NCBI GenBank assembly: GCA_951406725.2
Contig: OX597831.1
Location: 43,400,001-43,464,000 of the forward strand
Length of the DNA: 64,000 bases
Reading direction: 5' to 3'
Source: Octopus vulgaris
Taxonomy: Eukaryota
Made by a program: the position numbers and the translations under genes. The notes below the pieces were generated by a model, which did no database searches, was not told where the DNA came from, and saw nothing but the letters and a program-made list of their open reading frames with translations. Positions 7,330-60,925 of the stretch are shown piece by piece (the first letter of the stretch is position 1; each line of letters starts with the position of its first letter).

Positions 7330-7374
7330 TGAACTAGAACTTTCATGCATTAAATTCTGCAATCTTCAGGTTCA
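7330..7374 (-). ncRNA. Minimal type-I hammerhead ribozyme in the Penelope 3' region
   Basis: Minus strand: tgaac CTGAAGA t-tgca-gaatttaa-tgca-t GAAA gttc TA gttca. 5-bp stem I, stem II with a U-U closing mismatch, CUA cleavage triplet. Confidence 0.75.
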
Positions 7375-7787
7375 TGTAGTAGTGGTGACAGTCAAACTTC
7401 ACAATTTTTGACGGTAGCGAGATGATTGAATCTGTGTCTTAAATACACCTGTGTGGGCTCCAGAATGCTAGGTTTTGCAAACTGTATTCTGACCAATCAG
7501 TGTGTAGTATCACTCAATTACTTAAGCTGATTGGTTGGTTGAGCTGATTGGTTTTAGGTGTCACGCTTTGTTGGACATGTCAAGAGTCCTGTATCTTAAC
7601 CCTGGCCGAGGTAGCAATTGTTGGGCTACTTTTAGAAATGTTGTAAATAGCCTTTTTATAATTTTATATTTCAATTGTCATCATCATCATTGTCAGCACC
7701 TTAATTATTGTTGCTAGTGGTGATGGTGGTGGCAATAGAACTTTTAACCCTAAATAAGATAATTTTCCTGCTATCTAAGTATTATTA

Positions 7788-8770
7788 TTATTGCTTATTT
7801 AGCTTGGGTTCGAATTTATCAATAAAATTCTTTTCTCTGATTTTCCTCTCGATTTCACTTGGGCTGTGTAATTTGTAGAATGGAAATATTATATATATTT
7901 TCCGACCACATGTTGCTAGGTGGTTACTCAAAGGTATCTGACAGACCTCTGGGTCTCTAATCTGTTGTCGGTGTACACGTGAGCGTTCTGATAGTGCATT
8001 TCCCGTCTGACCTACATATATTTCTTCACAATTTGGGCATTTGATGCAGTAAATTAAATTTCTGCTTTTGCAGTTCATATTCGCGTTTGTGAATATTTTC
8101 CCGGTTTTTGTGTTTATATATTGGCCGGTATGTATGAATTGGCATGTGCCACATTGGCTATCATTACATTTAGATACAGTGACTGTTTGGTCTTTGTTGC
8201 TAAGGTCAAATTTTGCCTTTGTTAGTAATTTTTTCAAGTTTTTAGGCTGTCTTTTACCTTAGACATAGCTCGATCCGTGATTATGTCTTTTAATTCATTA
8301 CTTTGGGCAATGATTGGTAGGTTTGCTTTGGCAATGTTGAAGATATTCTGGTGACATGGGTTGTGTGTCACTATGAATGGTATGACTTGTTCTTGTTTTC
8401 CTCTTCCTTGGGTTGTCCTAAGTTGTTGTATGGGTATTTTTATAGCCCGCTGTATGCCATTTTCTATAAGTGGAGATGGGTATTTTTGCTTGAGCAAAAA
8501 TTCTCTTAGTTCTGTTAGGCATTTGTTCCTGATATTTGCATCTTCTATAATGGTACAAATTCTTCTAGCTAGGCAGTATGGGATGTTGCGTTTTGTAAGT
8601 GGTGGATGGCACGACTTAAAATTTAGGTATTGATGTGTGTCTGTGTGTTTATAGTATATATCTGTGGTGATGGTGGTGTCTTTTTTAATTACCCTTATAT
8701 CTAGGAATGGTAATTTGATACTACTCATCTCCTTTGTAAATTGGAGAGATGGGTGTAGGTTGTTCAGGAG
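7788..8770 (-). pseudogene. Penelope RT thumb and GIY-YIG endonuclease (one frameshift near 8250)
   Basis: LNNLHPSLQFTKE..LPFLDI..TDIYYKHTDTHQYLNFKSCHP..KRNIPY.LARRI (RT). SKRQPKNLKKLLTKAKF, C..C.TC, NLIYCIKCPNCEEIYVGQT..LSER...H, RE..FI..FEPKLN (GIY-YIG). Confidence 0.92.
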
Positions 8771-8771
8771 A

Positions 8772-8789
<18 letters not shown>

Positions 8790-8815
<26 letters not shown>

Positions 8816-9009
8816 CTGTGTTTGTCCCCCTCCAACATCGCTTGACAACAGATGCTGGTGTGTTTACGTCCCCGTAACTTAGGGGTTCAGCAAAAGAGAC
8901 CAATAGAATAAATACTAGGTTTACAAAGAATAAGTCCTGGGGTCGATTTGATCAACTAAAGGCGGTGCTCCAGCATGGCCGCAGTCAAATGACTGAAACA
9001 AGTAAAAGA

Positions 9010-9010
<1 letters not shown>
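8790..9010 (+). mobile_element. SINE family A, 3' half
   Basis: TGTGTTTGTCCCC..GATGCTGGTGTGTTTACGTCCCCGTAACTTAG..GGCGGTGCTCCAGCATGGCCGCAGTCAAATGACTGAAACAAGTAAAAGAG. Confidence 0.85.
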
Positions 9011-9056
<46 letters not shown>

Positions 9057-9706
9057 ATGTGATTCTCTTACTTTCTATCTACTAAATCCATTCAAAAGGC
9101 TACAGAAGACACTTGCCTGGTGTACCACTGAGCTCAGGACCATGTGATTAGGAAGCAAACTTCTTACCACACAGCCACACCTGTGCCGACTATATTCAAA
9201 TTTCTCTGAAGAGGTACCATAGTGCAAGTAAACAGTTAAATAGACAATGCAATCCAGCTCTACATTTATTGTTTTTATATCACATAAGGTTACAGGATTC
9301 CAATGAGCCAGTCACTAATTGAAGCTTTCCAATGGTGAAAGTGACAAAGGATAAAGGTGGAGTAAATACCACACAAAGGATTTGATATCCATATTTTAGC
9401 TATCATACTGAGGTCTTCCTCATTTGCCGAAATATTTCAGCAAAATTATACCCAGATGGTTTGAGGCATCATCACCACAATAGTATAAAAATTGTGGTTT
9501 TGGCAGTTAAACCGACATTTCCATTGTGTCTTCCTCTCAAATTCATACAACTTCAGCTAATTCTTCTGGTCCTTCACAGAGACGATTACCGTTGGTGAGG
9601 CCTGGTTGCCTGATAACCATTATCACAGGGTAAAAGTATACCTTGTGCTAAAAGTTTATCCCTCCAAACAAAACAAAATAAATACTTTAAAAAATATTAT
9701 TACTCA

Positions 9707-10130
9707 GGCGCAGGAGTGGCTGTGTGGTAAGTAGCTTGCTAACCAACCACATGGTTCCGGGTTCAGTCCCACTGCGTAGCATCTTGGGCGAGTGTCTTCT
9801 GCTATAGCCCCGGGCCGACCAATGCCTTGTGAGTGGATTTGGTAGACGGAAACTGAAAGAAGCCTGTCGTATATATGTATATATATATATATGTATGTGT
9901 GTGTGTTTGTGTGTCTGTGTTTGTTCCCCTAGCATTGCTTGACAACTGATGCTGGTGTGTTTACGTCCCCGTCACTTAGCGGTTCGGCAAAAAGAGACCG
10001 ATAGAATAAGTACTGGGCTTACAAAAAGAATGAGTCCCGGGGTCGAGTTGCTCGACTAAAAGGCGGTGCTCCAGCATGGCCGCAGTCAATATGACTGAAA
10101 CAAGTAAAAGAATAAAAGAAAGAAAGAATA
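9707..10130 (+). mobile_element. Full-length tRNA-derived SINE family A
   Basis: GGCGCAGGAGTGGCTGTGTGGTAAG head with A/B boxes, internal (TA)n(TG)n, A-rich tail. Many copies in the window. Confidence 0.9.
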
Positions 10131-10139
10131 AAGCCTTAC

Positions 10140-10272
10140 CCGTTTATGTCGATCATTTTGTTTTATCACAGATAACTGAACTGATTTCATCCATTCGTGG
10201 ACATCGTCATTTGCGCAGCTTCCTATATTTTTATTAAACTTCAATTCTTTCTGTTCTTTCTCTCTTCTTTCT
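10140..10272 (-). CDS. ADAM10: ADAM10 prodomain exon with cysteine-switch-like Cys (ERREKEQKELKFNKNIGSCANDDVHEWMKSVQLSVIKQNDRHKR)
   Basis: TATAG acceptor at 10274-10273, GTAAGG donor at 10139. 133 nt, phase 2->0, in frame with both neighbours. G.CA...V...M motif. Confidence 0.88.
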
Positions 10273-16431: not shown

Positions 16432-16462
<31 letters not shown>

Positions 16463-16694
16463 CGGAGTAAGCACATAAATGTGAAACAAGGTGGAAAAGA
16501 GAGTACTCAAATACCAGAGTGTAGAGTAATATGCTTTATTTAAAAGCAGCAGAAATATAACAAAAGAGTTTCATGAAACATAACAAAAGAAGGAACATGA
16601 AACTGAGTAACAGCTTTTGTTATATTTCTTCTGCTTTTTATATATATATATATATATATATATAATTATTCTTATTACATGATTATTAATATAT

Positions 16695-16721
<27 letters not shown>

Positions 16722-16725
<4 letters not shown>

Positions 16726-17508
16726 AGCAAGAAAAAAGCAACAAAAATTTAGTGGAGCGTATAGACAATCACTCACAAAGGGTATAAAGGGTAACTGAGA
16801 AGGAATGGGATTGTGATTGTGATTACAATCACAATCCCATTCCTTCTCAGTTACCCTTTATACCCTTTGTGAGTGATTGTCTATACGCTCCACTAAATTT
16901 CCTTCAACAAATTCTAACATAGCAGTTTTGAAAAATGATCAGAAATGCAAACAGCATACCTTCATACATCAGGAAACCCACTTTATTATGAACTAATTAT
17001 GGATAAATACATCGTCTGTGAGTATGAAATCTCTCCTCATATCTCCAGAATTCAAACATTCGTCATTATTATGGATGGATTTACATTTTCAATTTCTGTG
17101 AAACTAAGAGGTTTTTTAAAATACTTTTTTAAAGCCTGTTATTTGACTCTGCAACATTAGAGAACTTTGGATGTCTGTCTATTATCTAAATCTGATTTTT
17201 ATAGAACTATCCCGAATGTTTCATGAGTGTAGCCTCACCCCCTTAGATGTTTTGAGAACTCAGATGTTTTTTCGGCTGATGAGTATGGGCCACGTGTATT
17301 TGCTGCAATATTTGCAGCCTTAATAAAGGTGTCTTCGTACGAAACAATTGTACCGAAATATTGATCCATTTTTGTTGCTTTTTTCTTGCTTATAATCACC
17401 CCACATTATCTTATGGTTAATACCATATAGATTTCTGGTGCATCTAAGTTAAGTACCTCATTCATGTGAATTCAACAGAACTCACTTGAATCTTAATTAC
17501 TTTTACTA
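16722..17508 (+). mobile_element. Non-coding foldback element with hammerhead (Penelope pLTR or retrozyme-like)
   Basis: Perfect 27-bp IR (16722-16748 / 17368-17394), perfect 76-bp hairpin (16745-16900), hammerhead at 17270-17358, (TA)n flanks. Confidence 0.7.
17270..17358 (+). ncRNA. Type-I hammerhead ribozyme
   Basis: tttcgg CTGATGA gtatgg..(gctgcaa-tat-ttgcagc)..tcgtac GAAA caattg TA ccgaaa. 6-bp stem I, G-C closed stem II, palindromic stem III ACAATTGT, GUA triplet (cleavage after 17352). Confidence 0.88.
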
Positions 17509-17944
17509 TATATATATATATATATCTCAGGAAATAAAATCAAAATTAAACACTGATGAGTAATGTTGAATATTATAACCAAATGTACTGAATAAAATTT
17601 AATCAGACCACTTTCTGATTCAGTAGATCCTTGGTGGATTAGGATTTCGTGTGACAATAGGGAAGTAACCAGGTAGAGAATTGACAAAACACTGAATCTA
17701 TTTCAAGATTTTAAATGTGAGAAAAAGCAGTGGAAGAACTATAGAGATTGAGGAAGAGAAAAAAAATAAAAATAAGAGTATGTATTTTCTTCATGGTATT
17801 TTTTTAAAAGAGTATGTATCATCTTCAATTGTAGGCAAAGTATTAACTACTTAAGTATTAACTACATCACAACACATCCTACTTAAGCAGTAAGATGTGT
17901 TGTGATGTGACATCAGTTCTCACACATATAAGAAACAATGTAAT

Positions 17945-18285: not shown

Positions 18286-19439
18286 GAAAGTAGATATAAA
18301 TGAGAGATATTTCAATATATGAACTAAACATCACTGAGGATAATTACCTGAAATTATCTCCCATATTGAATATGATTTGGGAAAGAGTTTAAATGGGTGG
18401 TGATAAGAAACAAACCAAAGAACATTAAACAATAAAAAATATCAGTTACAATCTGACAGAATTTAAGCTTTTACAGCCTCCCCTACCAACTCCACTCCAT
18501 AAAATTAGCTAATTCATGAAGATCGAGTCAGATATTTTGTAAATCGAAACATCAGAAATATCAGGGAATAATCAAATAGATTCACATTTAATTACAGTTG
18601 CAACAATTAATAGCAATTAATAAAAGGAATTACTCAAATTATCTATAACAAGTAGATAACAATAAAGATATAATTACACAGGTAAACATATATCAGACTG
18701 CAAATATACATTGTTTACATGTAAAGAACAGAGGACAACAGTGTTGAGAGGGCACTCCTCTAAATATGGTTGTACAGACTTGAAATTTCTCTGAAGAGAA
18801 TTAGGTAACAGCTTGTAGTTGGGATTAATAATCTTAACAGCACTCTGAACATCATGATTCAAATAGATTTATTCTAAGAATGTGATCAGAATATCAATAA
18901 TGATCAGTTTTCACTATTTGCTTGGAACCCCCGCCCTATTCTGACATAATGAAGCATTATAAGAATGTGGCACACCACTAGAAATCAAAATAAAGTATAT
19001 ATACAAAGATTCAGGTGTGGCTGTGTGGTAAGAAACTTGCTTTTCAACCACATGGTCCTGGGTTCAGTCCCATAGCATGGTACCTTGGGCAATAGTTTTG
19101 TGGCTATCAGGCCTCATCAGCATTACATTTTTAAATCTACGTCCAGAAATTCCAGGGTGCACATAGGGTATATTTTAACGATGAATGGAGAAGACGGAGT
19201 GTAAAAGCATTTATTAGTACAACAATTGTTGTGAGTGGATTTGGTAGACAGAAACTAAAAGAAGCTCGTCATATCAACCAGTATTGGTCTGTTTACATCC
19301 CCATAACTTAGCAGCTCAGCAAAAGAGATCGATAGAATAAGTACTAGGGTCATTTGATCAACTATAAACCCTTCAAGGTGGTGCTCCAGCATGACCACAG
19401 CCATACTGACTGAAACAATATATATATATATATATTAAA

Positions 19440-19928
19440 GATTAATGGAGAAAACAGAATATAACAAAAAGCATGACAATTGTTTTGGCTTCAAGGTGCA
19501 CAGCTCCCTAACGGGCGTGGAATGATGCAATAACACCAGATGCAACGCAGAGTGCAAAAGAGCCTCTAAATACAACCATTTACCTTTGTGAAATTGAAAT
19601 GTAAATAAGCATATTATGCCACCCGAAGGGGTGTTTTTGCACTGTGTGTTGCATCTCCTATTATTGCATTGTTCCATGCCCATTAGGGAGCAGTGCAACT
19701 TGAAGCTAAAACAATTGTTGTACTAATAAATGCTTTTACACTCCGTCTTCTCCATTCATCGTTAAAATATACCCTATGTGCACCCTGGAATTTCTGGACG
19801 TAGATCTAAAAATGTATTGCTGATGATGCCTGATAGCCACAGACACACCACCTGGGGCTTACTCTGAAACAAAGCTTGGATACAGCATTTAACGCCTAGT
19901 TTCTAAAACTTAATTCTTTAACTTTAAA
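19440..19928 (+). mobile_element. Copy of the 6490-6890 non-coding repeat
   Basis: Aligns with the reverse complement of 6490-6770. Flanked by (TA)n and (CA)n. 19710-19840 is inverted relative to 19100-19230. Confidence 0.7.
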
Positions 19929-22243: not shown

Positions 22244-22446
22244 CTGCAAATATTGAACACATTTATGTTTACAATACACAGTTAACGTGATTGAGAATTA
22301 AGCAAAGCAAAAAAAAAAAAAAAAACAGAGAGACAGACAGACAGAAAAGAAAAGAAAAAGAAAATTACTAAATTTTAAGTTTGCTGGAAACAGTAAGTTA
22401 TGCTGTTATGATTCGGTATAAGTATTAGTAACATAATTTATTGTTT

Positions 22447-22600
22447 GGGGAGAGTCATTCTCTTTTAGTGCCTTATTAATTTAACACACTCACCAGTCTG
22501 ATTTCCACTCATTTATATATAAATAAATAAGTAAACAAGTGGAAATCAGACCGGTGAGTGTGTTAAATTAATAAGGCACTAAAAGAGAATGACTCTCTCC
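22447..22600. repeat. ~62-bp-arm inverted repeat
   Basis: GGGGAGAGTCATTCTCTTTTAGTGCCTTATTAATTTAACACACTCACCAGTCTGATTTCCACT versus its reverse complement at 22538-22600, about 2 mismatches. Confidence 0.9.
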
Positions 22601-23129
22601 AGATAATAAAATATGCTTCGACACACGAATTCCCATAAAGTATCTTGCAAACCAAATATAAAAAAAAAAAAAAAATTATAAGCAACATAATTTAAAGTGA
22701 AATGTCTGCTTACATTAACTTGTAGTTGTTGGACAGCAGCTATGCTGGGGCACCACTTTGAAGAGTTAAGTCAAACAAATCAACCCCAGTACTAATTTTT
22801 AAAGTTTTGGACTTATTCAGTATCTTTTGCCGAACTGCTAATTTACAAGGGCATAAACAAACCAACACCAGCTGTGAAGCAATAGAGGGGGGGAACAAAC
22901 ACACACACACATACAATGGGTTTTATAGTTTATGTCTACCAAATTCATTCACAAAGCAGTGGTTAACCCAGGGCTATAGAAGACATTTGACCAAGGTGCC
23001 ACACCATGGGACTGAACCTAAAGCCACATTGTCTTTAGGCATAGATGTAAGACCAAGTAAAAGTGGATGGAAATGATGAAAGTCACACGAGTCTAACTTA
23101 CATTGGCTATTTGATCCCTGCTGTTTTAA

Positions 23130-26634: not shown

Positions 26635-29600
26635 TGTAGTAGTAGTAGTATAGCAGAGACACAAGCAAGAATAGTACAACTCTATAGTAAAAGAAGAAAA
26701 AAGTAAATAAAAAGTGCCTCTATGTAGTAAGTCACACTGATAGAAGTAAATGAACTAACATTCTTTTAATACACATTTCATGAAGGATGATGACTTGACA
26801 GAAATGGTCAAGCATCAAACTGAATACATTACAATATTGAGAATGGCTACAGAGATGACCACCCTGTACTGCCACCACTGCCGCCACCCTCACCACCACC
26901 AAGCAGAGTATATCTAAAATTACACTGTTCAGTGTGCTTTTTTAAGATACTACTTACTGAACCCCTATACTACCAATGAAGGACAAGCTGTCAATGGCTT
27001 TTCCACACTGTTCTCAACTCTTTTCTGCTTCTCTTCATTTGGATCCCCACTTCCTTGCAGTTTCCTTTTGGATTTTGTCACACCATGTTATATGTTTCAC
27101 TGAGGAAAGACTTTCCTCTCACAGGTTTTGTTGGTTTTTGAATTGTCATTGGTGTTTTTGCAACTTACCTTTTTTCTAGATAGAGGTACACATATACACA
27201 CACACATCTGTCTTTGCATGTGTCCCATCTCCCTCTTATTACTCCCTATCATCTTAAAAAAGACAATAGGGAGAAATAAGAGAGAGATTTGGTTACTATT
27301 TCTAGCAAGTCAAATTATTGTGTATTGAACTCCAAATCAATACATAACAAATGCTGTACATTTGTTATGTATTGAACTCCTAATCAATACATGACACAAA
27401 TGACCGCATAAAAGCTTCCAGATTGACTTATAGGTATGTAAAACACTACAGAAAGCAGCGCTTTGGATGGTCTGAGATTCATAAAGAGTGGGAGCAGATA
27501 GAATAAGTTTATATCGTCTACAAAATAGGTGTGCTTATATATAATTGCCACAATAGGACATTGTGGGTACAGAATTTTGAGGTGTAAAAACATCATGCAT
27601 AAGTAATTTGAGGGGATGATTATGCTGTTTAGTTTGCCATAAAACTTAGATATTTAATTATATTGATATATTGCCAATGTTTCACATAATTCCATGAGAC
27701 ACTGAAGATTCTATTTTAATGAAAAATTGGTCATAGGTGCAAACATAACTATGTGGTAAGAAATTTGCTTCTTAATTGAATGGTTTCAGATTCACTTCCA
27801 CTGTGTGGCGCTTTGATCTAACATCTACAACAGGTCCAGGCTGACCAAAGCCTTCTGAATGGGGTTGGTAGGCAGAAACTGAGAAACCCATTGCATGTGT
27901 GTGTGACAGCTGTAAACAAGTGTCACCATCATGTAAGCAGTGTCCTTCGTTTCCAATCTTCCAAGACATGTCCGGTCATGGGAAAATACTACCTTATTTG
28001 AAAGTAAGTCATGATTAGTGAGAGGAGGACCATCTGGCCATAGAAAATCTGCCTCGACAAATTCTGTCCAACCCATGTGAGCATAGAAAAGTGGATGTTA
28101 AAACGATACTGGAGATGCCTATTTTATAACTATACAAAATTACAAATTGTTTGCAAAACAAAATATATTATTTTCCCATAACAGCAAAATAATTTATTTC
28201 ACTTCAAACTTTTCATATTTAGTATTTTCCAGAGATTCTTGTTTCACTTAATTGTAAACAATATTAATTGACTTAACATGGATACTTCAGTGTACATCCC
28301 ATAAGAATTTTTTAAATGTCTTTGACAAATGGAATGTAATCACTGATGATATTACTTTATTTTACTTTAACTCCATTTTTTGGGGGAGTTTTTTCTCTCA
28401 CAGCCATCAGATAAATCTTTTGCCTTTATTTTATATTGTTATTTTGCCAGCATTTTATAGGTAACATGATTCCACTGAATTAGCACTCCAATCTTCAAGT
28501 CAAAACTGTTCACAAGTTCTACAGTCTAAGCCACATTGACAACATTCTTTAAATTTTGTGTGCAGTTCTTTACAAGTAATTTTCTCTTGATGTAAGAGGA
28601 ATTCATCTACCACTGCAACATGTGCAAGATAATAGAAAAAATAAATTAAGTAAAAAGCATATCTTATAGTGCATTGCACAGAGTGTTAAGTTTTCTGATT
28701 CCTTGCCAAGAAAATCTCAACAGATTCTGCAGAATTCTCATGCTTGTCCTTTAAGCAAGACTGTTCTGTAAACAAATATCCCTGCTGGTAAAAGCACTGA
28801 ATTCAAGCCAATGAAGGAAAGGATCACTTGACATGTTACAAAAACTTACTCAACTATCTTGAAAAAAAATTGGATCAATACACAGGATGTAGTCCTAGGT
28901 ACATTATGCTTGAAATTATGATGAGATGGTCATGATAGAACCACTTTTCATCATATGTCAGTTGTTTGTTCTATTTCCACACCAGTCTCATACTTGTTGG
29001 CCTCTCCACTTTATGCCCTCAGTCAAATGCAAACACTCTCTCACATGCCAGGTTAAGATGACATTTAGTCCTTATAGTATTGTTTCACTCATCTGCAAAC
29101 ACTACTGAGATGATTGTAGAAGACACTTTGGCACAGTTGTTTTGGCATCATTGATTCAACACTGACCTATCTGATATCAGACTTTTTGAGCCCAGGGCCT
29201 TTTGGTACCATAAAGATTTTGTTATTGTTCTAGATGACAACTAACTTCAATCACCATAATTAAAATACTCAAAGTATTAAACTTTGTTTAGTTTTCTCTG
29301 CTTCACTTTATGCATATGGTGACTGATGAAATATTGACAAAAAAATAGATACAAAAACGTTTTTCACATAATGGATTTCTATACGTCTTTGACAAAGCAA
29401 GCTGACTGCCAATGCATTTAAATTTTAGCACTGTGAGCAGAAAAATGAATGTGATAGAGAGAGAAAGATGCATTAAATGACCCCCATCTATTACAAATAG
29501 CTCTGTCCCTGCTTGTATGTGTATATTTCTATGTGCACTTGTGTTTGCCAAAAGTATTGTCACCAAAAGGCCATCACCAAAATAGATTCAATGTCCAGCC

Positions 29601-32228: not shown

Positions 32229-35200
32229 GAGTATATATATATATATATGGCACTTTATGAAAACCCAAACTTGTGTAATGTTACGTTAAGTTACATAACA
32301 ATACTTGTGTTCTGAATAAATATGCGAAGGAAACGTAGTAATATCCTAAAACACCCATCTACTTCATTCTCAATACTATGAATATATGTGCGCGTATCTT
32401 TGGCCACCTCAACGCTCCCTGCAACTAACGAAATGTATGTGTTTTTTACTTTATTTTTATACTTTAAAACACACTCCCATTCAACGTCCTGCTCCAATAT
32501 TTCCATATGCACTTACCAAAATTTTATAGCAATATTCAGACATTCTTCCAGCAATAAATTACGTAATGGGTGACATCAATGCAAACATATTCTACATGCA
32601 TTGACAGAGACATTTGGCCAAGACGCAAAAATTATTATCTTATAGCTCACAAATGAAATAACTTAACTGACAACAGAATTTTCACTTATGTAATTTCGTG
32701 CAAAAGCGATTCAATAAATGCTATTAAATGCTTTGTGAATTGTCTGTTCTGAATTTAAACAAAAGTAATTTTTATTCACATAAAGTATATACATATATAT
32801 ATACATATATATGTCTCACCCATGCTAGCATGGAAGGCAGATATTAAATGATGATAATGACAGACAGGAAGGTACACAAGTATGTAGATAGATGGATAGA
32901 TACATACATACATACATATATAAATGTGTTATGTATACATACATACATACATGTATGCACACACATATATGCACATACAAATCTGTGTGTGTATGTGTGT
33001 CTGAAGAAAATGAAAAAAATATAATAATTGATTATATTTAACTGTTATGTGTCTCTTGATAATATTACCATCGTAAAAGTGTATGGTTCTACAGAAGCAA
33101 TCGCTCCCTGCAAGTGTCACTTATTAATTATAGAATGAAAAGTAGAAACAAGAAAAGAAATTGGCATTTCGAAGTTAACTAAAGGGAGTTTATCATTGCA
33201 TTGATTATTCATGAAGTGAGTGCATTAAGTAATTAGCTGCAAGTGGTTTTATAATCTTGGGAGTTGGCTGGCTATTATGGCATCAAATCAATAGCCCCAA
33301 TGATGCTGTTTTAACACTACTGTCCCCATTTACAAGAAAAAAAAAAAAAAAAGAAGCCAATTAGGGCAGCAATGTCTGATTCATAATAAGTATAGATAGG
33401 AAGTCAAGTGTAGGAAAATATACAGACACTTCCATAGTGTTGCCGGAACCACAAGACACACTGATATAGCTCTTACAGGCACAGGTATGAAGCTTGCTTC
33501 CTAACCACATGGCTAATCTATCAGTCTTTTTTGCCAAATAGCTAAGTTACGGGGATGTAAACACACCAACACTGGTTACCAAGTGGTAATGGAGAACGAA
33601 CATAAACACAAAAACACACACACGCATATGCATATATATATACACACACACGATGGGCTTTTTTCAGTTTCCATCAACCAAATTCACTCACAAGACACTT
33701 GCCCAAGGTGCCATGCAGAAGGACTGAACCCAAACCATGTGGTTGAGAAACAAACTTCTTATCACACTGCCATGCCTGCACATCTATAGCTATATATATG
33801 TATATATATATTTCTTATAGCATCCACTTCTCCATGCTTGCATGGGTCAAATAGAATTTGTTGAGACAGAATTTTCTCTGGCCAGATGCCCTTCCTGTTG
33901 CCAACCCTCAACCATTTCCAAGCAAGGTAGTATTTTCACATACCTAGAAATGTTTTTCACAGAAGACTGAAAATGACAGTAACTCTCATTTACAACCATC
34001 TTCTGGTATCAAGACAAGGGTACACTCAAACACAGACAATATTTTCAGTTTCTGTCTACCGAATCCATTTACAAGGTTTTTTTTAAATACATTATACTAC
34101 GTAATGATTTAAACGGTTAGTTCATCTTTTAATTCAAACCTAGGAATGTCTTTCCATTAGGCATTTCTAATACATATTTGACCTATGCTACTTATTTGAA
34201 GTTTAAATCTCTAATTTCCATACTCATCTATAGAAGGAACATCTGCAATGCCGCTTTACTTATATCTTCAAATATCCGTTGAAGCCATTAGTTATGGTTA
34301 AATATCCAACATGACTCACATCACTTTCTCATATGGATAACAATATGAATCTCCTAGATCCAAATTTTCTGCTATATTCCTTCTCAAGTTCTTTGTGTTA
34401 TGATTTCTACTTCCTGCACTGAAGAGTACGTTGATATTGTTTACATTATCATGATATCTCTGTACAAAACGATCATCTGCAAGAATTAAACTTCTTATAT
34501 ATTTCAACATTTTTAACTAAATTGATGGGTTTTATGGGACTTCATTCCATAAATTCACCATATATATATATATATATATATATCAGAACAAGGCACGTTC
34601 TGTGCCGGTGGCACATAAAATGCACCATCCGATCATGATCGATGCCAGTGCCTCCTGGCCCCTGTGCCGGTGGCACTTAAAAAGGCATTCACTACACTCT
34701 CTGAATGGTCGGTGTTAGGAAAGGCATCCAGCTGTAGGAACACTGTTAGATCAACTGGAGCCTAGTGCAGCCTCCTGGCTTCCCAGACTCCAGTCGAACC
34801 GTCCAACCCATGCCAGCATGGAAAACAGATGTTAAACGATGATGATGTCAAACAGTAAAGCAGTATGACCATTTCAAGCGGCTCCTTTTAACTGAACTAT
34901 GTAATAATTACAACCATTTAAATGAAACGCTATCTTCAGCCACACAAATATGGATTTTCAACAGACAAGATATATTAATATATTTTTTCTTAAATATTTT
35001 AACAGAGCAAAAGGATGGAAGAATTTCATGTTGTCACTATTGTAGCAAGAATAGCTAAGAGAAGAACAAACTACAAATTTTAGAGTGGCATGGAACACAG
35101 TGGGGGGTCATTTCCAATTAATCTCTGTCATCAATAAAAATCTAAGACAAGAAGACTGCATACATTTACAATAAAAAGGAAATTGACAGCTCACAGCTGG

Positions 35201-35435
35201 CTGTTGGTCATAAATTTCATACTGTCACAGGTACCCCTCAACCCACAAGAAAAAGAAACAAAGCTTTAGAAAGAGTCAATTAGATAGCAGTAAATGTCTA
35301 TGAATGAGGTAGGGTAGGGGTGGCATTAATTCATGATGCTGTTACCAGTGAAAGGTTTATTCATCTTCAAGCTGTGTGTGGGACTCACTTGGTGCTTCAA
35401 CTTAAGTACTTAATTCAAATGAATCTTAATTACTT

Positions 35436-35469
<34 letters not shown>

Positions 35470-35475: not shown

Positions 35476-35962
35476 GTAATGTTTGTGGCCACCTCAACAT
35501 GGCTGTTCCATATGGAACTATATTACTACAATTTTTTTTAACCCCAAGAGGACACCTCCTCCAGCTGATTAATGACACAACCTGTGTCCAATATATTGCA
35601 AACAGGGGAGCAAACCCTTACCATCTAGCAATGACAGGACCAGTATACCAGTCTGGCTTCAGGATATTTCCCTTTGTCAATACAGGGCAACTGCCTGCTA
35701 GACATGGCAGTCGTTTGTCCCAGCTTGCAAAAACAAATGACATTCAGCCACTGATTTTGCAACAAGCAAAGTAGCTTGTTCTAAAATCTCCATAAGAGAT
35801 CAGGTAGTAACAATATTGAAAAGGAATGTTTGTTGTCACTTCAACATGGTTGCTCAGTACAGAACTACGTTACTATCATTTTGAAGTGGCAACAAACACC
35901 ACTTTGCAGTATTGTTACTACTTACACCTCTAATAGACATTTTAGAACTAACTACTTTGCTT
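35470..35962. mobile_element. Non-coding element between (TA)n tracts with direct and inverted terminal duplications (Penelope pLTR-like architecture)
   Basis: 35478-35530 is repeated directly at 35826-35880. 35764-35843 is inverted at 35881-35962. Confidence 0.55.
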
Positions 35963-43012: not shown

Positions 43013-46000
43013 ATATATACAATGGGCTTTTATACAGTATTGGTTGGCCCAGGGCTATAAAAGAAGACACATGCCCAAGGTGCCATGCAGTGGAACAGAA
43101 ATCCAAAATTACATGGTTGCAAAGTGAGCTTCTTAACCACACAGCCATACAAAGAAACACACAATACTATAATCCTTTTTAAACATGAATAACCCTCAAC
43201 TCGAATCTACACACAAACTCTGCATGAATGTTTGTGTGATTAAGGAGCTTGCTTTGCATTCACATGGTTTTGGGTTCAGTCCCACTTAGTAGGACCTTGG
43301 GCAAGTATCTTCTACTAGACATGAACTGACCATTACCTTGTGAGTTAATTCAATAGACAAGACTGTAAGAAAGCCTGCCGCACACGTGTGTATGAGTGTG
43401 TGTGTGTGTCCTTCGCAATGCTTGACAGCTAGTGTTAGTGTGTTTCCATATCCATAACTTAGTGTTTCAGCAAAGGAGACTGAAAGAGTAAGAACTAGAC
43501 TTGAAATTAAATACCGGGGTTGATTTGATCGACTACAGCATACCCACAATCCAATGACTGAAATAAGTAAAAGATAAAAAAAGAAAACTAGTTATCAGAA
43601 ATGCCACAGACATTCCATGATAACCACCCATCACTAACATAACCGAGACTGCACGACAAATTTAGATTCTCTCCTCAGGGACAGAAAATACGTCAGCTCT
43701 TAAAAGTTGCAGACTTTCACCAAAACAGAAGTGCATCTTAACGTTAAAGTTCACTTACATAGTAGTTTCACCACCACTGCCACTACTACCACCACAACAT
43801 CACTACTGCTGCTGCTGTTGTTGCTGCAAGCATACATTGGACTGAATCCAAGAATAAGCCATTTGATTGATTGACAAACCTTCACTCACCAACACACTGT
43901 AAACATTAACACATTGAAATGTGCTCTTCCTATTGTGACTACAAAGACCTCTTCTCATCTGATCATACAAATCATTTACTACCATCCACACCCACTACTG
44001 ATTGGGTGTGGATGGTGGTGTATACGATTTGTATGATCTATTTGTCTTTCGTCTTCCTCCACTTCTCATTATCCCTGTTATGTCGCAACAGTCATTTCTG
44101 AAACCTTCCTCAGAAGTAAATCGCTTCCTTTCTTTCTTTCCCATCCTCACAGACATTAACACTGACAAGCAGAAGTAGCCGCACTTCAGCTGTTCAATGG
44201 GACAGCCTTGCTCCTATTTCTCACCACTAAATACGACCAAAAATATAAACATTTTATGAATAAGCAGAAAGAATACAGTTAATTCTAATGACCCCAGTAC
44301 TTATTTTGTTGACCCAAAAATGATGAAAGGTGAACTTGACTTCAATAAGATTTGAATCCTATATAAAAAAAATAAAAGGATAAAACAAAATATGGCAAAG
44401 TATTTAAAATCTAACATAGTGATACTAATAATGATTGATTTTAATATAAGCAAAAAGCCTGAACTTTTGGAGAGAGTGTTAGTTGAAACTACCAATCCCA
44501 GTACTTGGCAGCTACTTTATCAAACCCTGTATGAAAGACAAAGTTGACCCCAGAATATAAAAAGCCAGAATGAAACTTCTAGGCATTTTTTCTGACATTA
44601 TAATGATTTTGCCAATCTACTGTTGTAATTATGATAATTAATAATGGTTTTTAATTTAGGTATAAGGCCATCAATTTTGAGGGGAAGAGATTAGTCAATA
44701 CCAGTACTTAACTTGTATGCTATTTTATCAACCCTGGAAGGATGAAAAGCAAAGTAGACCCAGGCAGGAATTGAACACAGAAAGTAAAGAGTCAGACGAT
44801 ATACCGCAAAGCATATTGTCCAACGGTAATGTTAATGCGATTAATAATAATTGTTTCTAAATACGGACACAGGGCTTGAAATTTGGGGAAAGGGATTAGT
44901 CAATATCATGAACCCCGTTACTTGACTGGTACTTTATTTTATTGCTCCCAAGGTGAATGATAAAGTTCACCTCAGCAGGATTTGAACTCAGAATTTAAAG
45001 AACCAGAACAAATATTGCAAAACATTCCTTCAGATGCTCTGAAGATCTCTTTTATTTGTCACAAGAACAATGAATAAGCAACACAACAAAGTATAAAACT
45101 GAGAAGGTTTTAGTATGTGAAAAATACGAAACAATTAGAAAAAAATACACGGAAATAAATACAGGTACAATAAAAGTAAATGTGTGTGTGTGTGTGTGTG
45201 TGTGTGACAGTGTAAGTGCATGTGTACCTAAAAACTATTGTGAAATTCCACATTTCTCAGATTACAAAGAGCGTGTTCACCCACTTGTGGTCATGGTTAA
45301 CAATTACGTATTTAAAACAGGTTTGTTCAGCCACACCAAACACCTACCTCACTCTTACTTAAAGCAACAATCAAGTTAGAGGAAGATTTGGTCACCATTT
45401 CTAGCATATCAAGAGATTGTGTAAATGCTTCCTCTTGGAATCAGAACAACTGGTGGTACGGCATATTATATGGAGCTATGGATTGGAAAGTTCTTAGTCA
45501 TTTGGGTCTGTTTAATCAGGTCTGACTAGGGCCTACAAAAACTTTTAAAGAAACTTACTTGAAGACAAACCTTTGCATTCTGTCAACTTCCTCTTTATAG
45601 TGTTTGAAAAAAGTTAAGATCTTGGCTAGTGAGGGAAAGATATGTCTTTAGCCCTCTCAATCATGTCCACCTCTACACTTCTTTCATCATAAGGTATCAA
45701 ACAGGACAAAAAAAAATGCCTGAAAATTATCCCCAATTCCTACCATTATGTGAAAAGGTATAAATGATTAAATCAAACCAAGTACTTGACTAATATCATT
45801 GATTCCAGAAAGATGAAGGCCTCGGCAGATTTTGAACTCAAAATATAAAAATATTAGGTAAACATAACCTAATTGTCCTGCACAAAGTCATACACCAGAG
45901 CTATGTCAGACCCTCCCCTCCCCCAATGTCAGCTTCGATGTGGTTTTCTAAGGCTGAATGTCATTCCTAACACCAACCACTTTACAGTGTGTACTGGGTG

Positions 46001-50857: not shown

Positions 50858-50874
50858 ATATATACATATATATA

Positions 50875-51285
50875 TATCTGTAAATATAATATGTGACAAT
50901 TATTTGGTAGCCATGATAAAACTCCGAGTTTCGGATCTCGGGGCGGAAACCCACATCACCATCTCTTCAGTTATCCACCTATCGAAAAAATGCTATGGAA
51001 ATGACCGTTAAACAAAGGGAAATTACTGTGTGATTGACCGTTATTAAGGCAAAAGAGCTATTAGAATGACCACTAAGTGAAGGGAGGGAGTAAAGGTAAG
51101 GGAGTAATAATGTTCATAGTTTCCGCCCCGACATCCACAGCTCAGAGTTTTATTATGGCTACCAAATAATTGTCACAGATTATATTTACAGATAAATTCC
51201 TCTATTTACATAATATCAAGGTCTCTTTCATTTTTTGGTTGTCTTACCATTTCTATTTATTTATTTGGTTGTCTTACCATTTCTA

Positions 51286-51297
<12 letters not shown>
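50875..51297 (-). mobile_element. Foldback element with hammerhead (Penelope pLTR-like)
   Basis: ~76-bp inverted arms at 50875-50950 and 51119-51194, (TA)n flanks, terminal ~30-bp tandem duplication at 51236-51297. Confidence 0.7.
50915..50975 (-). ncRNA. Minimal type-I hammerhead ribozyme
   Basis: Minus strand: gataa CTGAAGA gatgg..gtgggtttccgc..gatcc GAAA ctcggag TT ttatc. 5-bp stem I, quasi-palindromic stem III ACTC-G-GAGT, GUU triplet. Confidence 0.72.
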
Positions 51298-56250: not shown

Positions 56251-57039
56251 AACAGGAGACATCATCATCATTTAACATCCATTTTTGAAGCTGGCATGGG
56301 TTGGATGGTTTGACAGGAGTTGGCAAGCTGAGAGCTATACCAGCCATGTTTGACGTGGCTTCTATGACTGGATGCCCTTCTTAATGCTAAAAATTTTACA
56401 GAGTGTAAGGGGTTCTTTTTATGTGACACCAACACATGAGAGGTTAAACATGTAAGGGGATAGTGATATGCAATTTGCTGTAGAGGAGATACATAGATAT
56501 TCCAGCTGGAGAGGAGAGTGATACATTAAAGAGAGCACACAAGTCAGAGAGTAAGATAGCAAGAATGAGAGGAATAGTGGTGGAGATGTGTTGGGACATG
56601 CCTTCAAGGAACAGTACTGGGGGTGAGAATAAGTGAGGTGATACAGAGGTTTGGACTAGGTGAGTGGGCAGAATAGAGGTGACTGTAGCAAGTGATGGGG
56701 AGATATATAGGAGTGGCTCAGGGGAAGAAGTTGAAGTAGATGTGCAAGTGTATTGAGGGTGATAGCAGATAAGTGGGAAGTTAATGATTTAGAATGGCAC
56801 GGGGAAGAAAAGGCACAGAAAGGAGGTGATTGATGGAGACAGCAAGCAGAGAAAGATGAGAATTGGAAGTGGTTTGGGGTGGGGAAAAGAAGGTAACTGA
56901 GAAAGCAGAGGAATGTAGCATGTGCCAATTCTGTGCACATGTGACAGAGAGGTGATGGGTTTTAGGGGATGAAATCCGGGGGAGGTGGTTGATAGGGCAG
57001 AGACCCTCATAGACTCATAGACATGCATTACCAAGACGG

Positions 57040-59500
57040 TTTTGGGATATCAATTTCGCTGTTGTTGACGGGTCTTCTTGATCACAGCAAAGCACCATAT
57101 ATCTCAGACCTTTGTCATTTCCTTCATAAGGCTCAGCATCTTGAGATCAGTCTTCAATACTTCGTACCATGTCTTCCTGGGTCTCCCTCTTCCACAAGTT
57201 CCAGTTACTTTAAGTGATTGGCATTTCTTTATACAACTGTCCCCATCCATACAAATCACATGACCACAATCTTCTCTCTATCACAATGCATCTGATTCCA
57301 CTTATGCCCAACTTTTCTCTCAATAAACCAGAGCTCAGCCATACATGTACACTGACATTGCACATTCAGTGGAACATACTACTTTCATTCCTCTCTAGTC
57401 TTTGCATGTCCTCTGCATTCAGGGCCCATGTCCCACTACCATGTAGCATTGCTGTTTGTACACATGCATCATATACTCTTCCTTTCACTCGGAGAAAGAG
57501 ACCTTTGGTTGCCAACAGAAGTAAAAGCTCTCTGAATTTTCTTCATCCTATTTTTATTCTAGCAATTATATTTTCAGTACATCCTCCTCCATGGTTAATT
57601 AGGTCACCCAGGCAGCAAAAATTATCCACTATCTTTTGAAAGCCTCCTAAACATTTGAGAAAAGCAATTTCTCATGTATCTGTAGAATTAATGGTTCCTG
57701 TGTATCTTCCACATGCAAACCCTACCTTCTCTGTTAACCTTCTAATTATCCTACTGCACTTTTTATGTGTCCATAGCAAGCAGTGGGTACATCGAATGGA
57801 ATTCCTGCCAACATCTTTCCTACATAAAGAGCAGGGTCATTTATATGAAGTGGGTAGGGTCCTATCTATTTTCTTGCTTACTAGGACCTTGTTCTTTAAC
57901 CCTTTAATTACAGTTTTTGCTTCCACACCTGGAATTTCTTTTCTAGTTCTGTTACAGATTCTGCTATGAGAGCAAGATCATCAGCATATAGTCATTCCCA
58001 TGGGCAGCCAATGTTCAATTCTTCTTATATAACCTGGAAAACGATAATGAATAGGAATGAGCTGAGAACAGAACCCTGTGCATGTATCTGTACACTAAAT
58101 TTGTCACTGTTCACATGGCTAACTTTTATCTTATCCCACTATCAACAGCCCTGTGCATGGCGTGTACTACTTTCACAAGCTGTTTATTTATCCCTAGCTT
58201 CCTAGAGACCACCATAAAACAGAGTGAGGTACTCTGTTGAAGGCTTTCTCAGGTCAACAAATGAGAAGTAGAATGGCTAATTCTTAGTTAAATACTTCTC
58301 TCACTATTGCCTCACTATGAAAATAGCACCAGTAGTGCTTCTAGGCACAAAACTAAACTATTTTTCATGTAATCTAACTTTGTTCTTTATGAATTGGACT
58401 ATAACTTTTTCGATAACTTTTATCAAATGGTCCAATAATTTGATGCCTCTATAATTACTTCTATCTAAGAAAACTCCCTTACCCTTGTCGCAGCTGACTA
58501 TAATGCTGCTACCCCAGTCATAGCAGATTATGCCTTCTTGAATAAACTGATTAACTATATGAGTGGCCAGACTGTATCCTACCAGATATCTTAAGCGTCT
58601 CAGTGGTGTCTACAGATCCTTCTAGCCTCAAGTCTGAAATCGTTAATCACTGACCTTTGATGAATTGTACATTCTGCACCTGGAAAGGATTTGCATTCAC
58701 AGTCCTGGTTTCTGTGAGAATCTACTCAATTTGGCTTGTGTGCCCACCAGGTTAAGTGATCAAATAGCTGGCAGGTTTCTTGAAATTAGTTTTGCAGATC
58801 AAGTCATTTGCATAACAAAACTCCAGCAGTGTTGTTCCCTCATTTCTTGAACCAAAGCTGTAACCTCCATGCATACCATAAAATCCATCAGTGCTTTCCA
58901 ACATGACTATCGAAGTCCCCAGCCACAATGACAATGTCACTGCCTTTCATCATCAAGGTAGCTAGCAGAAGGGATTCATAGAAAATGGTCTCTTCTAAAC
59001 ATCTGCTAGTCTGACATGTGGAGCAAATGCAGAGATAACTGTCACTGTTATGTTAAACAAGACTATTCTTAGCCTCGTAATTCTATCACACACCCTGGCT
59101 ACCTCAATCATCTTATCCACCCATTTCTCAGCAGAAGAATACCTACACCACTGAACCCATCAATGCTGCCCACTGGGAAGAATTTGTATCTATGTTCCTT
59201 GCCCAGAAGCAGTATAGCTGAGACCCCCCGCTTCATCATACTTCTTGCACATGGAACACATCTACATATCTCTGCTCGAGCATTTCAACAATCTCACCAG
59301 ACACATCTTTCATTGTGCCAACATTAATTGTGGCAGCTCTAAGCTTGTGGACCTGGGAAGCCTGGGAGGGTAGTTTAGAGGATGTTTTCAGCATCTGATG
59401 GCAGCAGGTCCTTATGCATAGGCTAAGCAGGTATTAGTTGCAGTATTAATTAAAATTTCCTTCAGTTCCATAAGGCCTTCATGGGTACACAACTGCCAGT
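57040..59500 (-). mobile_element. Degraded RTE-clade LINE (APE endonuclease, RT, C-terminus; internal deletion)
   Basis: Minus-strand relics: LRAATINVGTM, GVGILL, IVAGDFDSHVG, HGGYSFGSRNEGTTLLEFCYANDL..TNFKK, FVDL/EKAF, QGSVLSSFLFII, LYADDLAL, GRGRPRKTW. Confidence 0.88.
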
Positions 59501-60184
59501 AGAGGGTTAAGTAAACAAGGTTGAGGAAGGAGAGGAGTAGAAGAACACAGGGAGTTGACACACCCTATTATATATGTATAAATCATCTTCATCAATTAAT
59601 GTCCATTTTCCATGTTGACATGGACAGTGTAAACATATATACATACACTCACACAACAACACATAAGGTGCAGACATGAAAGTACATATATAATATAGTC
59701 ACACATACACATAAATACATACATGTAGACCCACAGAACACATATACAAATATGTACCCCAGCTTATACAAGCTCTTTCTGGTATGGGTGGTTTTTGAAA
59801 ATTGTCTTTTCCTTGTTGGATTAATTTATGATCTACTGTAATCACTGCAGTGGCCAGTATGATCATCAGTTAGAATATGCTATTTGTGTGTAACTGAATT
59901 GGTTAGTTGTAAAGTTTGTATGGTCAGCAGTGCAATACATTAAAGTAGCTAAACTTCCCCCTCACCATCTCCCTTACTTTAATTCCTTCGTTACCTTTTA
60001 GCCATGTACAACACACACATAGCCACTCTAATTCTGGCTAGTGTTGAACCACTTTTTTGTGTCTACATTCTTTGGAAAGCCTTTTATTTACCCATTTCCA
60101 CAAGGGCGCTTAATCATAAGGAGTCCCTCCTTTTACTTTTACCATATGTCCCAGCTTTCAAAGAGAAGGCATAATATAACCCAC

Positions 60185-60453
60185 TATGTACTTTGAGCTG
60201 TGTCGGTGGCATGTATAAAAAGATTCGAGCGAGGTCATTGCTAGTCCCCGCCTGACTGGCCCCCGTGCCGGTGGCAAGTAAAAAGCACCCATTACACTCT
60301 CGGAGTGGTTGGCGTTAGGAAGGGCATCCAGCTGTAGAAACTCTGCCAAATCAAGACTGGAGCCTGATGCAGCCATCTGGTTCGCCAGCCCTCAGTCAAA
60401 ACCGTCCAACCCATGCTAGCATGGAAAACGGACGTTAAATGATGATGATGATG
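60185..60453 (+). mobile_element. RTE LINE 3'-end fragment
   Basis: GTGCCGGTGGCA..GGAGTGGTTGGCGTTAGGAAGGGCATCCAGC..CCATGCTAGCATGGAAAACGGACGTTAAA(TGA)n. Confidence 0.85.
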
Positions 60454-60696
60454 ATACCCATAAACAAATATGACAATACATTTTTCACGAGCATCAAACC
60501 AATATACCTGCTTGTTGTTCCCTCACCTGTCTTTGTTTCTTGTACATTTGAACTAATATATACACAAACAAAATATCACAGGTGATCTAGATGATTAGGT
60601 ACACTAGGTAAGTGCTGTAATGGATTACTAGGGCTCCAAGGTTATAGACGAGACGGTAATTATGGAGCTGTTGCAGATTTCTGATGCAGCAAATAT

Positions 60697-60925
60697 ATAA
60701 TTGTTAAAGAGGACAACAAACATTAAGGCAAGGCAAACATCTCAAGTCGTATACAATATTATTATTGGGAAAAATTCAAAGTCTTACAGCTGTTTTCCCT
60801 ATTTGTCTCTGATGATGGAATATCCCAGAAACAGCTGTAAGACTTTGAATTTTTTCCAATAATAATATTGTATACGACTTGAGATGTTTGCCTTGTCTTA
60901 ATGTTTGTTGTACTCTAACAATTAT
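60697..60925. mobile_element. ~95-bp-arm foldback element enclosing a hammerhead
   Basis: Arms at 60697-60795 and 60829-60925 with few mismatches. Flanked by AT/GT microsatellite-like sequence. Confidence 0.8.
60805..60843 (+). ncRNA. Minimal type-I hammerhead ribozyme
   Basis: gtct CTGATGA tggaatatccca GAAA cagctg TA agac. 4-bp stem I, stem II tgg/cca, palindromic stem III ACAGCTGT, GUA triplet (cleavage after 60839). Confidence 0.88.

Follow-up and report, generated by a model that had tools for sequence, protein, structure and literature searches.

Four type-I hammerhead motifs (HH1 to HH4) lie within a window of 64,000 nt of Octopus vulgaris DNA, and the question raised by this locus is whether the short elements that carry them form a new class of mobile element or are remains of a known one. 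The first-pass annotation had left two options, truncated relics of Penelope pLTRs and a self-propagating retrozyme-like class. HH1 is part of the 3' region of a truncated Penelope-like element (PLE), and we consider it probable that HH2, HH3 and HH4 are stubs from the 3' ends of several further Penelope families, left by early termination of reverse transcription, each with an inverted stub placed head-to-head; the hammerhead-bearing mini-elements are likely ordinary transposon debris and not a new element class. The features are listed in Table 1.

The window was searched with a strict descriptor and with a relaxed descriptor, in which one mismatch or bulge was tolerated at the base of stem II, and the counts were compared with those in Markov-shuffled sequences. 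The strict descriptor matched HH2 and HH4 only (2 observed; shuffle mean, 0.08; 2 reached in 0/200 shuffles), and the relaxed descriptor matched HH1 to HH4 and a fifth candidate at 34860-34943 on the reverse strand (5 observed; mean, 0.135; 5 reached in 0/200 shuffles). The positions, strands and stem III sequences previously given for the four motifs were reproduced exactly in this search. A looser scoring scheme, which separated signal from chance more poorly (at score 18, 5 matches compared with 0.68 in 25 shuffles), gave a random-looking match at 45039, and a U3-A8 variant core had no match in the window. That the motifs arose by chance in repetitive, AT-rich sequence could be argued from that random-looking match, from an Rfam scan of the window that returned no hammerhead family among 83 matches (E up to 5), and from the folding z-scores of the four motifs (-0.78 to +0.29), which are uninformative; this explanation is largely refuted by the shuffle counts. 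The finding of 0 full hammerheads at 120 loci in viral contigs that match the core boxes alone, and the stem repair within the HH2 family described below, also speak against it, and we give it almost no credence.

The CUGANGA and GAAA boxes, an NUH site and a stem I closing both ends were found in all four motifs. The earlier description of the cores as intact thus holds for the core boxes but not for the base of stem II, which is intact in HH2 and HH4 and damaged in HH1 and HH3. The usual paired base at this position in PLE-type hammerheads is G10.1-C11.1. HH2, the best-formed of the hammerheads, has G-C and 7 pairs, HH4 has U-A at 10.1-11.1 and 3 pairs, HH3 has one G-C pair followed by a mismatch, and HH1, which is likely decayed, has U.U at 10.1-11.1. 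Stem III had been called palindromic or nearly so throughout; this applies to HH2 and HH4, for which perfect 8-bp self-duplexes were predicted (-6.4 and -11.1 kcal/mol), and to HH3 with a central mismatch (-9.7 kcal/mol; insert of 7 nt with one central base unpaired), but not to HH1, whose GTTC is non-palindromic and for which no self-duplex was predicted (+0.4 kcal/mol). The predicted cleavage nucleotides are 7335 (HH1), 17352 (HH2), 50920 (HH3) and 60839 (HH4).

Table 1. Positions of hammerheads, element copies and coding sequence in the window
Feature	Position	Strand	Remarks
Second copy of the 19099-19928 family	6489-6889	-	76% identical
3' non-coding region (pLTR) of HH1 element	7175-7787	-	terminates at (TA)n
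HH1	7330-7374	-	type I; U.U at stem II base; stem III GTTC
Penelope-like ORF, 5'-truncated	7788-8770	-	C-terminal RT part, CX4CXXC linker, GIY-YIG with CCHH
Stop codon of Penelope ORF	7790-7788	-	414 nt before HH1
HH2 inverted arm	16722-16820	-	copy of 16825-16900 joined to copy of 17368-17394
HH2 main copy	16825-17506	+	non-coding; ends at (TA)n; member of multi-copy family
HH2	17270-17358	+	type I; 6-bp stem I; 58-nt stem-loop II; palindromic stem III; GUA site
Fold-back copy, another family	19099-19928	+	hammerhead-like relic passing no descriptor
Fifth candidate hammerhead	34860-34943	-	decayed; 57-nt stem-loop II; relaxed descriptor
HH3 main copy	50872-51118	-	5' end at or before 51118; terminates at (TA)n
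HH3	50915-50975	-	type I; damaged stem II base; GUU site
HH3 inverted truncated copy and tail	51119-51297	+	79-nt copy, tail, then (TA)n
HH4 inverted truncated copy	60697-60795	-	starts at GAAA box (equivalent of 60829)
HH4 main copy	60796-60925	+	from 9 nt before stem I to (TG)/(CA) tract
HH4	60805-60843	+	minimal type I; palindromic stem III; GUA site

Directly upstream of HH1 lies a Penelope ORF, so that the link to Penelope RT/GIY-YIG proposed in the first-pass annotation, where this coding fragment had been overlooked, is stronger than its reader could know. The ORF comprises a PLE-type RT followed by a C-terminal GIY-YIG with CCHH (PF01541 match, E 4.9e-06, profile search), and its linker falls within the CX2-5CXXC pattern of Neptune/Nematis (PMC8557442). 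The reading frame shifts between about 8276 and 8258; the ORF matched P0001 in two frames (64-66%), and its best match was an Octopus sinensis protein (79%). HH1 is located 414 nt past the stop codon in the 3' repeat, in sense with the ORF, and this element is without an inverted copy. A six-frame profile and tblastn search of the window detected Penelope ORF pieces in the HH1 element only, with no ORF remnant beside the window copies of HH2, HH3 and HH4.

Among 80 metagenomic loci with related ORFs, some of them near-duplicates, 23 carried a type-I hammerhead (0 in 10 shuffles), in sense in 23/23, and stem III was palindromic in all 15 with a stem III insert of 4 or 6 nt. The 16 downstream hammerheads lay 75-1687 nt beyond the ORF match; a non-coding stretch of about 450 nt before HH2 is therefore normal. 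A DNA comparison of nine window units with these 80 loci gave no match above 29 nt.

HH2, HH3 and HH4 lie, as described before, in elements built from long inverted repeats with no ORF remnant adjoining, and in 3/3 of these fold-back units the inverted copy is placed 5' of the main copy, head-to-head, with the 3' ends outward. The HH2 unit contains a 76-nt perfect hairpin and a 27-nt outer arm; the two pieces of its inverted arm are joined via a 4-nt microhomology, the arm abuts (TA)n, and a 112-nt tail (17395-17506), whose family membership was confirmed, is present at one end only. In the HH3 unit the inverted copy is 90% identical, starts in loop II and has a mutated core, and a tail of about 100 nt containing a 30-nt tandem duplication stands on one side, probably as part of the unit. 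The inverted repeat of HH4 extends over 88 nt at 97%, and this unit is without a tail; one-sided tails of about 85-112 nt are thus found in 2/3 units (HH2 and HH3).

The reported proximity to (TA)n or similar tracts was borne out, since 12 of the 13 listed ends are no more than 5 nt away from a dinucleotide tract, compared with 1.5% of non-tract positions; 4 of the 13 ends were chosen with the tract in view, and 8 of the other 9 lie within 5 nt. For the HH2-HH4 units, 5/6 ends are within 1 nt of such a tract. Fold-back points appear to differ from copy to copy, both in three joints of the HH2 family and in the two window copies of the 19099-19928 family; the latter share a 3' end at the microsatellite and differ in the 5' end and in the inverted piece. 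A proposal that the edge of stem I marks the start of short copies was rejected, as it applies loosely to HH4 (start 9 nt away) but fails for HH2 and HH3, whose starts lie 445 nt and at most 143 nt from that edge. The inverted arm of HH4 and one HH2-family joint stop at the GAAA box, and another joint stops at the CUGA box.

These boundaries bear on two further explanations. Outer inverted repeats of 27-99 nt beside TA tracts would suit MITE or foldback DNA transposons with terminal inverted repeats, in which the hammerheads would be incidental; the arms are unequal, an extra tail stands at one end, the inversion points seem to vary among copies, and hammerheads of this type are those linked to Penelope ORFs, all of which make such an origin extremely unlikely. 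Non-LTR retrozymes, which would spread via hammerhead-cut and circularised monomers, also have type-I hammerheads in short ORF-less units, and mussel retrozymes exist (PMC7229834). Against these, 0 hammerheads were found within 30 tandem-repeat rows of the window, units of every family carry a single hammerhead, the 6 listed HH2 joints include no 'go back' joint, and in 0/4 units does a unit or arm end fall on the cleavage nucleotide, a boundary expected from the cut-monomer model. Since the window shows neither a cleavage-site boundary nor a tandem array, the units fail the retrozyme definition, and we regard this origin as very improbable. Together with the fold-back points that seem to differ between copies, these observations favour truncated pLTR relics over the self-propagating class, the other option in the first-pass annotation.

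The several decayed hammerheads mentioned previously could be located as a hammerhead-like relic in the 19099-19928 and 6489-6889 copies, the 3' half of a motif close to 16600, and the candidate at 34860-34943, but only the last passes a descriptor. This candidate lies about 500 nt from a short end piece (35412-35437, forward strand) resembling the end of the HH2 tail; taken by itself, the candidate could be a chance match. In 19099-19928 the main copy is on the forward strand, and the left inverted arm is interrupted by common repeats. Local fold-backs at 6337-6406, 22432-22615, 35765-35961, 43961-44038, 27227-27288 and 17864-17908 are without usable hammerhead boxes and were not counted.

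The HH2 family is multi-copy, with 965, 783, 359 and 34 contigs in 4/4 sequencing runs from three organisms. Strand-change joints were found in run X7 at 16988/17027, 17182/17341 and 17276/17328, none at the hinge of the window copy; each was seen in a single contig, all within this one run, whose type is uncertain, so that they may be library artefacts, and none were listed in the other three runs. In stem II, T>C at 17286 restores a Watson-Crick pair (67460/68427 depth in X1), and separate loose contig ends suggest that stem I may be doubly compensated. No difference fell in the hammerhead core among the 40 listed of 112, and no link to coding sequence was seen among the 24 listed of 254 loose ends. 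Summed contig depth rises about 100-fold toward the 3' end in X1, and similarly in X3 and X12, which is a hint at most, as the rise is not monotonic and summed contig depth is no copy number. No weight was given to the bins left uncovered at 16722-16748 and near the HH2 hinge.

As an ORF-bearing parent of HH2-HH4 was not found, a non-autonomous parent has to be considered. At least one of these families could be a SINE-like Penelope derivative, whose ORF-less master, a solo pLTR with its own promoter, would be copied in trans, truncated and inverted. This would agree with the absence of any ORF from the 445 nt that precede HH2 and from the surroundings of HH3 and HH4, with the abundance of the HH2 family in three organisms, with published cases of solo pLTRs and of mobilisation in trans through pLTR sequences (PMC3846280), and with pLTR-related monomeric retrozyme derivatives reported in a 2026 preprint (10.64898/2026.07.22.740005). 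The 450 nt of non-coding sequence is, however, within the ORF-to-hammerhead range of the relatives and of HH1, and no fixed 5' end is seen in the HH2 family, because contigs of other copies continue beyond about 16859 into unmatched letters; we judge such a derivative unlikely. A more particular version, in which the HH2 family is a dispersed, non-tandem Penelope parasite without a coding parent, with an unusually long stem II and with joints favouring the ribozyme core, is doubtful as well; if true, core-biased joints would tie the ribozyme fold to RT stop or template-switch points.

For the preferred reading, stubs of truncated Penelope families, the following steps are inferred from published Penelope work and the anatomy seen here. 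Briefly, a Penelope RT/GIY-YIG protein would nick AT-rich or microsatellite DNA, and cDNA synthesis would begin beyond the 3' side of the hammerhead, at either of two fixed sites. Either cDNAs would be primed on both target strands or one cDNA would snap back, with variable termination points, and the terminated cDNAs would be joined by microhomology into an inverted repeat with 3' ends out and a one-sided tail. A copy too short to reach from the 3' end back into the ORF would keep the hammerhead and lose all coding sequence, and so would look like an ORF-less mini-element. The fold-back layout of HH2-HH4, which had looked like a family trait, is the published Penelope insertion structure.

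The hammerhead would be inherited from the parent pLTR and may there cleave as a dimer via the palindromic stem III; dimer cleavage of minimal hammerheads has reportedly been described by Lunse et al. Predicted pairing of stem I was 0.8-0.9 (HH2), 0.1-0.5 (HH3) and 0.8 (HH4) for the motif alone, and at most 0.004 in whole-unit folds of all three. According to these models, the inverted arms would sequester HH3 and HH4, and hammerheads in single folded-back copies should for the most part lack activity.

The findings matter mainly for annotation. An annotator might class the short inverted repeats that sit on (TA)n tracts of this genome as MITEs or as hairpins resembling miRNA precursors; they probably represent Penelope stubs, and hammerhead motifs can flag stubs left without an ORF. 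Read-through transcripts of fold-back stubs would make long double-stranded hairpins. A family present in many copies, truncated and inverted at numerous points, offers material for studying the role of the Penelope hammerhead, and clustering of joints at the ribozyme core, if found, would give a handle on that role. Greater importance would follow only if some family proves to be without a coding parent.

Descriptions of the octopus-like families of this window were not found in the literature searched; Repbase, Dfam and 2026 preprint supplements may list them. The closest system is that of EN+ PLEs of the Neptune/Nematis type (PMC4209133, PMC8557442), which share the RT, the CX2-5CXXC linker and the GIY-YIG with CCHH, a sense type-I hammerhead in the 3' repeat, a palindromic stem III (as in HH2 and HH4), strong 5' truncation, (TA)n targets, and mostly single, ORF-less hammerheads of diverse families. 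Single min-HHRs have been described as truncated PLEs, with opposite-strand pairs 100-700 bp apart (PMC4209133). Unlike in these elements, stem-loop II of HH2 is 58 nt long, compared with 10-19 nt in the 23 hammerheads of the related loci, and the tails in the window are about 85-112 nt (none in HH4) vs the published 30-40 bp. Non-LTR retrozymes (PMC7229834; Li et al. 2026, 10.64898/2026.07.22.740005) are likewise ORF-less, with type-I hammerheads and a proposed pLTR origin, but occur as directly repeated tandem units that carry two or more hammerheads and give rise to circular RNA, whereas the window units are single and inverted and lack a boundary at the cleavage site. Cleavage by the Penelope hammerhead is dispensable for insertion in vitro (PMC11167929). 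Relative to Penelope inverted-pLTR units, the main copies here are too short to keep coding sequence, and target-site duplications are unreadable inside the microsatellites. The arrangement itself, an inverted truncated copy head-to-head with a junction palindrome, microhomology and a tail at one end, is that of these units (PMC3846280, PMC11167929), in which the tail is optional (PMC3846280) and the inverted-copy layout has also been published elsewhere (PMC8557442).

The four type-I hammerhead motifs (HH1 to HH4) reported by the first-pass annotation were all recovered at the positions claimed (see table). HH2 and HH4 were detected in the window with a strict type-I descriptor, which gave a mean of 0.08 matches in 200 Markov shuffles, none of which contained two. 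When one mismatch or bulge was allowed at the base of stem II, HH1, HH3, and a fifth, decayed candidate with a long stem-loop II were gained (mean of 0.135 in 200 Markov shuffles; 0/200 with five). The cores had been described as intact; the conserved boxes were whole in all four, and the base of stem II was flawed in HH1 (U.U) and HH3 (mismatch directly after the first pair). A palindromic or quasi-palindromic stem III, likewise proposed for all, was found to be palindromic in HH2 and HH4, and that of HH1 was unable to self-pair. No hammerhead was present among 83 Rfam matches in the window, and the folding z-scores of the motifs were unremarkable. We consider the four motifs to be real hammerheads and likely stubs of Penelope-like elements (PLEs). 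An end piece resembling the HH2 tail lies at 35412-35437 (+), about 500 nt from the fifth candidate, and the two may form a degraded head-to-head unit of a related family.

The association of the hammerheads with a Penelope reverse transcriptase (RT) and GIY-YIG nuclease was supported by HH1, which is located in sense orientation 414 nt past the stop of a Penelope ORF that had escaped the first-pass annotation. The product of this ORF comprises the C-terminal portion of a PLE RT, a CX4CXXC linker, and a CCHH-bearing GIY-YIG domain (PF01541, E 4.9e-06); the coding sequence is split over two frames. The best protein match of the RT fragment was from Octopus sinensis (79% identity; runner-up, 60%). 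Since a CX2-5CXXC-type linker is described as a mark of the Neptune or Nematis type (PMC8557442), the linker marks the HH1 element as a putative member of one of these PLE types. Both ends of the HH1 unit are within 3 nt of dinucleotide tracts, and the stretch was present in part in at least 20 sequencing runs from five organisms (some of these runs being of very small size), as would be expected of a multi-copy family. Penelope is a known and partly young component of the O. vulgaris genome (PMC13282606, PMC8967140), for which 31 families and 336 recent insertions are given (PMC13282606).

Among 80 metagenomic loci with related ORFs (long flanks in 52; near-duplicates included), 23 contained a type-I hammerhead, in all cases sense to the ORF and never antisense, and none was found in 10 shuffles. 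The descriptor required just the outer pair of stem III and not palindromy; nevertheless, the stem III insert was palindromic in 15/15 loci where it was 4 or 6 nt, so that HH2 and HH4, with their palindromic stem III, conform to the usual type of the group. Sixteen downstream hammerheads were located 75-1687 nt beyond the ORF match, and copies less than a few hundred bases long are therefore expected to lack an ORF. In seven loci (L033, L038, L040, L044, L046, L048, and L063), the hammerhead precedes the start of the matched ORF by 1.2-1.5 kb, and one at 2191 (+) of locus L001 is an extreme minimal form in which the stem III insert is absent altogether.

The inverted repeats beside microsatellites noted earlier were mapped in the units of HH2, HH3, and HH4. 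In each, the copy with the hammerhead is preceded on its 5' side by an inverted copy, the 3' ends of both facing outward, and a dinucleotide tract lies no more than 1 nt away from five of the six unit ends (background: 1.5% of non-tract positions within 5 nt). In the left arm of the HH2 unit, the 5' end of the main copy snaps back perfectly over 76 nt, and a 4-nt microhomology connects this stretch to a 27-nt copy of 17368-17394. The HH3 unit carries a probable one-sided tail of about 100 nt after its inverted copy. A small unit flanked by (TA)n tracts directly adjoins the HH2 unit on the left; its inverted arms measure 25 nt and its one-sided tail 84 nt, and it contains a GAAA-like half motif. 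Six local, non-dispersed palindromes without hammerhead boxes were also observed, two of which terminate at (TA)n and some of which give a weak miRNA-like hairpin match in Rfam under gathering scores; these may be stubs whose truncation point lies downstream of the ribozyme.

Coordinates of the features in the window
Feature	Position	Strand	Remark
HH1	7330-7374	-	
HH2	17270-17358	+	
HH3	50915-50975	-	
HH4	60805-60843	+	
Fifth hammerhead candidate	34860-34943	-	decayed; relaxed descriptor
Penelope ORF	8770-7788	-	
HH2 unit	main copy 16825-17506		112-nt tail, right end only
HH3 unit	main copy up to 50872-51118; inverted copy 51119-51197		inverted copy starts in loop II
HH4 unit	main copy 60796-60925; inverted copy 60697-60795		inverted copy starts at GAAA box
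Small unit	16458-16638		
Boxless palindromes	6337-6406, 17864-17908, 22432-22615, 27227-27288, 35765-35961, 43961-44038		
U11 snRNA-like match	2840-2957	-	
Open frame, 117 aa	62781-63134	+	

The HH2 unit was compared with contigs of four sequencing runs at 80% likeness, and 965, 783, 359, and 34 contigs were matched, the family extending through the tail to 17506. Of at least six joints, three change strand (16988/17027, 17182/17341, and 17276/17328), none at the hinge of the window copy; all came from run X7, a run of uncertain type, each in a single contig that may be an artefact, and strand-change joints were absent among those listed for the other three runs. Summed depth in run X1 rose about 100-fold toward the 3' end with a bump near 17000, and the profiles of X3 and X12 were similar in shape; depth is not copy number, and the gradient is taken as no more than a hint. 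No coding sequence was reached at the 24 of 254 loose ends listed. In a different family, two window copies (19099-19928 and 6489-6889; 76% identical) share the 3' end at a microsatellite and differ in the 5' end and inverted piece. As to fixed boundaries or variable truncations, the three single-contig joints and these two copies favour the latter, with fold-backs made anew at each insertion. Counting against a final answer, no ORF remnant was found near HH2, HH3, or HH4 in the window, the listed loose ends gave no link to coding sequence, and the tails of the HH2 and HH3 units exceed the published 30-40 bp. The GAAA box is where both the HH4 inverted arm (60829) and one HH2-family joint (17341) end, and a further joint (17276) falls at the CUGA box, so that two unrelated families are involved; picked from about eight seen, these three are too few for a conclusion.

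A self-propagating retrozyme-like class had also been proposed. Non-LTR retrozymes are described as units in tandem that contain two or more hammerheads and give rise to circular RNA (PMC7229834; 10.64898/2026.07.22.740005), derived from the Penelope terminal repeats, pLTRs (10.64898/2026.07.22.740005). The evidence weighed against this reading: none of the 30 tandem-repeat rows of the window contained a hammerhead, no unit end coincided with a cleavage nucleotide (7335, 17352, 50920, and 60839 for HH1 to HH4), and no go-back joint was present among the HH2-family joints listed. A MITE reading was disfavoured by the unequal arms and copy-specific joints.

In run X1, C was present at 17286 in 67460 of 68427 depth units, converting the stem II wobble of the window copy to a Watson-Crick pair, and the HH2 core was free of changes among the 40 of 112 differences listed. 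Two loose-end variants from separate contigs, taken as pairing partners, would amount to two compensated pairs in stem I. Predicted intermolecular self-pairing of stem III (HH2, -6.4; HH3, -9.7; HH4, -11.1 kcal/mol) fits the dimer cleavage described for PLE hammerheads (PMC6765202). In predicted whole-unit folds, the probability of stem I was ~0.95 in HH1 and at most 0.004 in HH2, HH3, and HH4, and the inverted arm covered the cleavage site of HH3 and HH4; little or no ribozyme activity is thus predicted for most of the time in these three copies.

Elsewhere in the window, a U11 snRNA-like match scored 52.4 bits (Rfam gathering score, 39). An open frame without a Pfam match resembles the C-terminus of a LINE of the RTE type, and the common interspersed repeats resemble octopus SINE and LINE ends.

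Among the papers listed by a literature search for octopus and hammerhead ribozyme, none dealt with octopus hammerhead families, as judged from title and abstract start, subscription papers and repeat libraries lying outside its scope, and the word 'ribozyme' is absent from the accessible part of the O. vulgaris annotation; these particular families may be unreported. The class, ribozyme type, and layout are already known. According to Cervera and de la Pena (PMC4209133), minimal hammerheads are mostly single, probably in truncated PLEs, some forming opposite-strand pairs 100-700 bp apart, with very high diversity within a genome. For Penelope, head-to-head joints with palindromes, microhomology deletions, and solo pLTRs (PMC3846280), and a tail delimited by two RT start sites with AT-rich cleavage (PMC11167929), are described. 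The fold-back layout of HH2-HH4 is that published for Penelope, in which an inverted, 5'-truncated copy adjoins the 5' end and one terminus carries a tail (PMC8557442).
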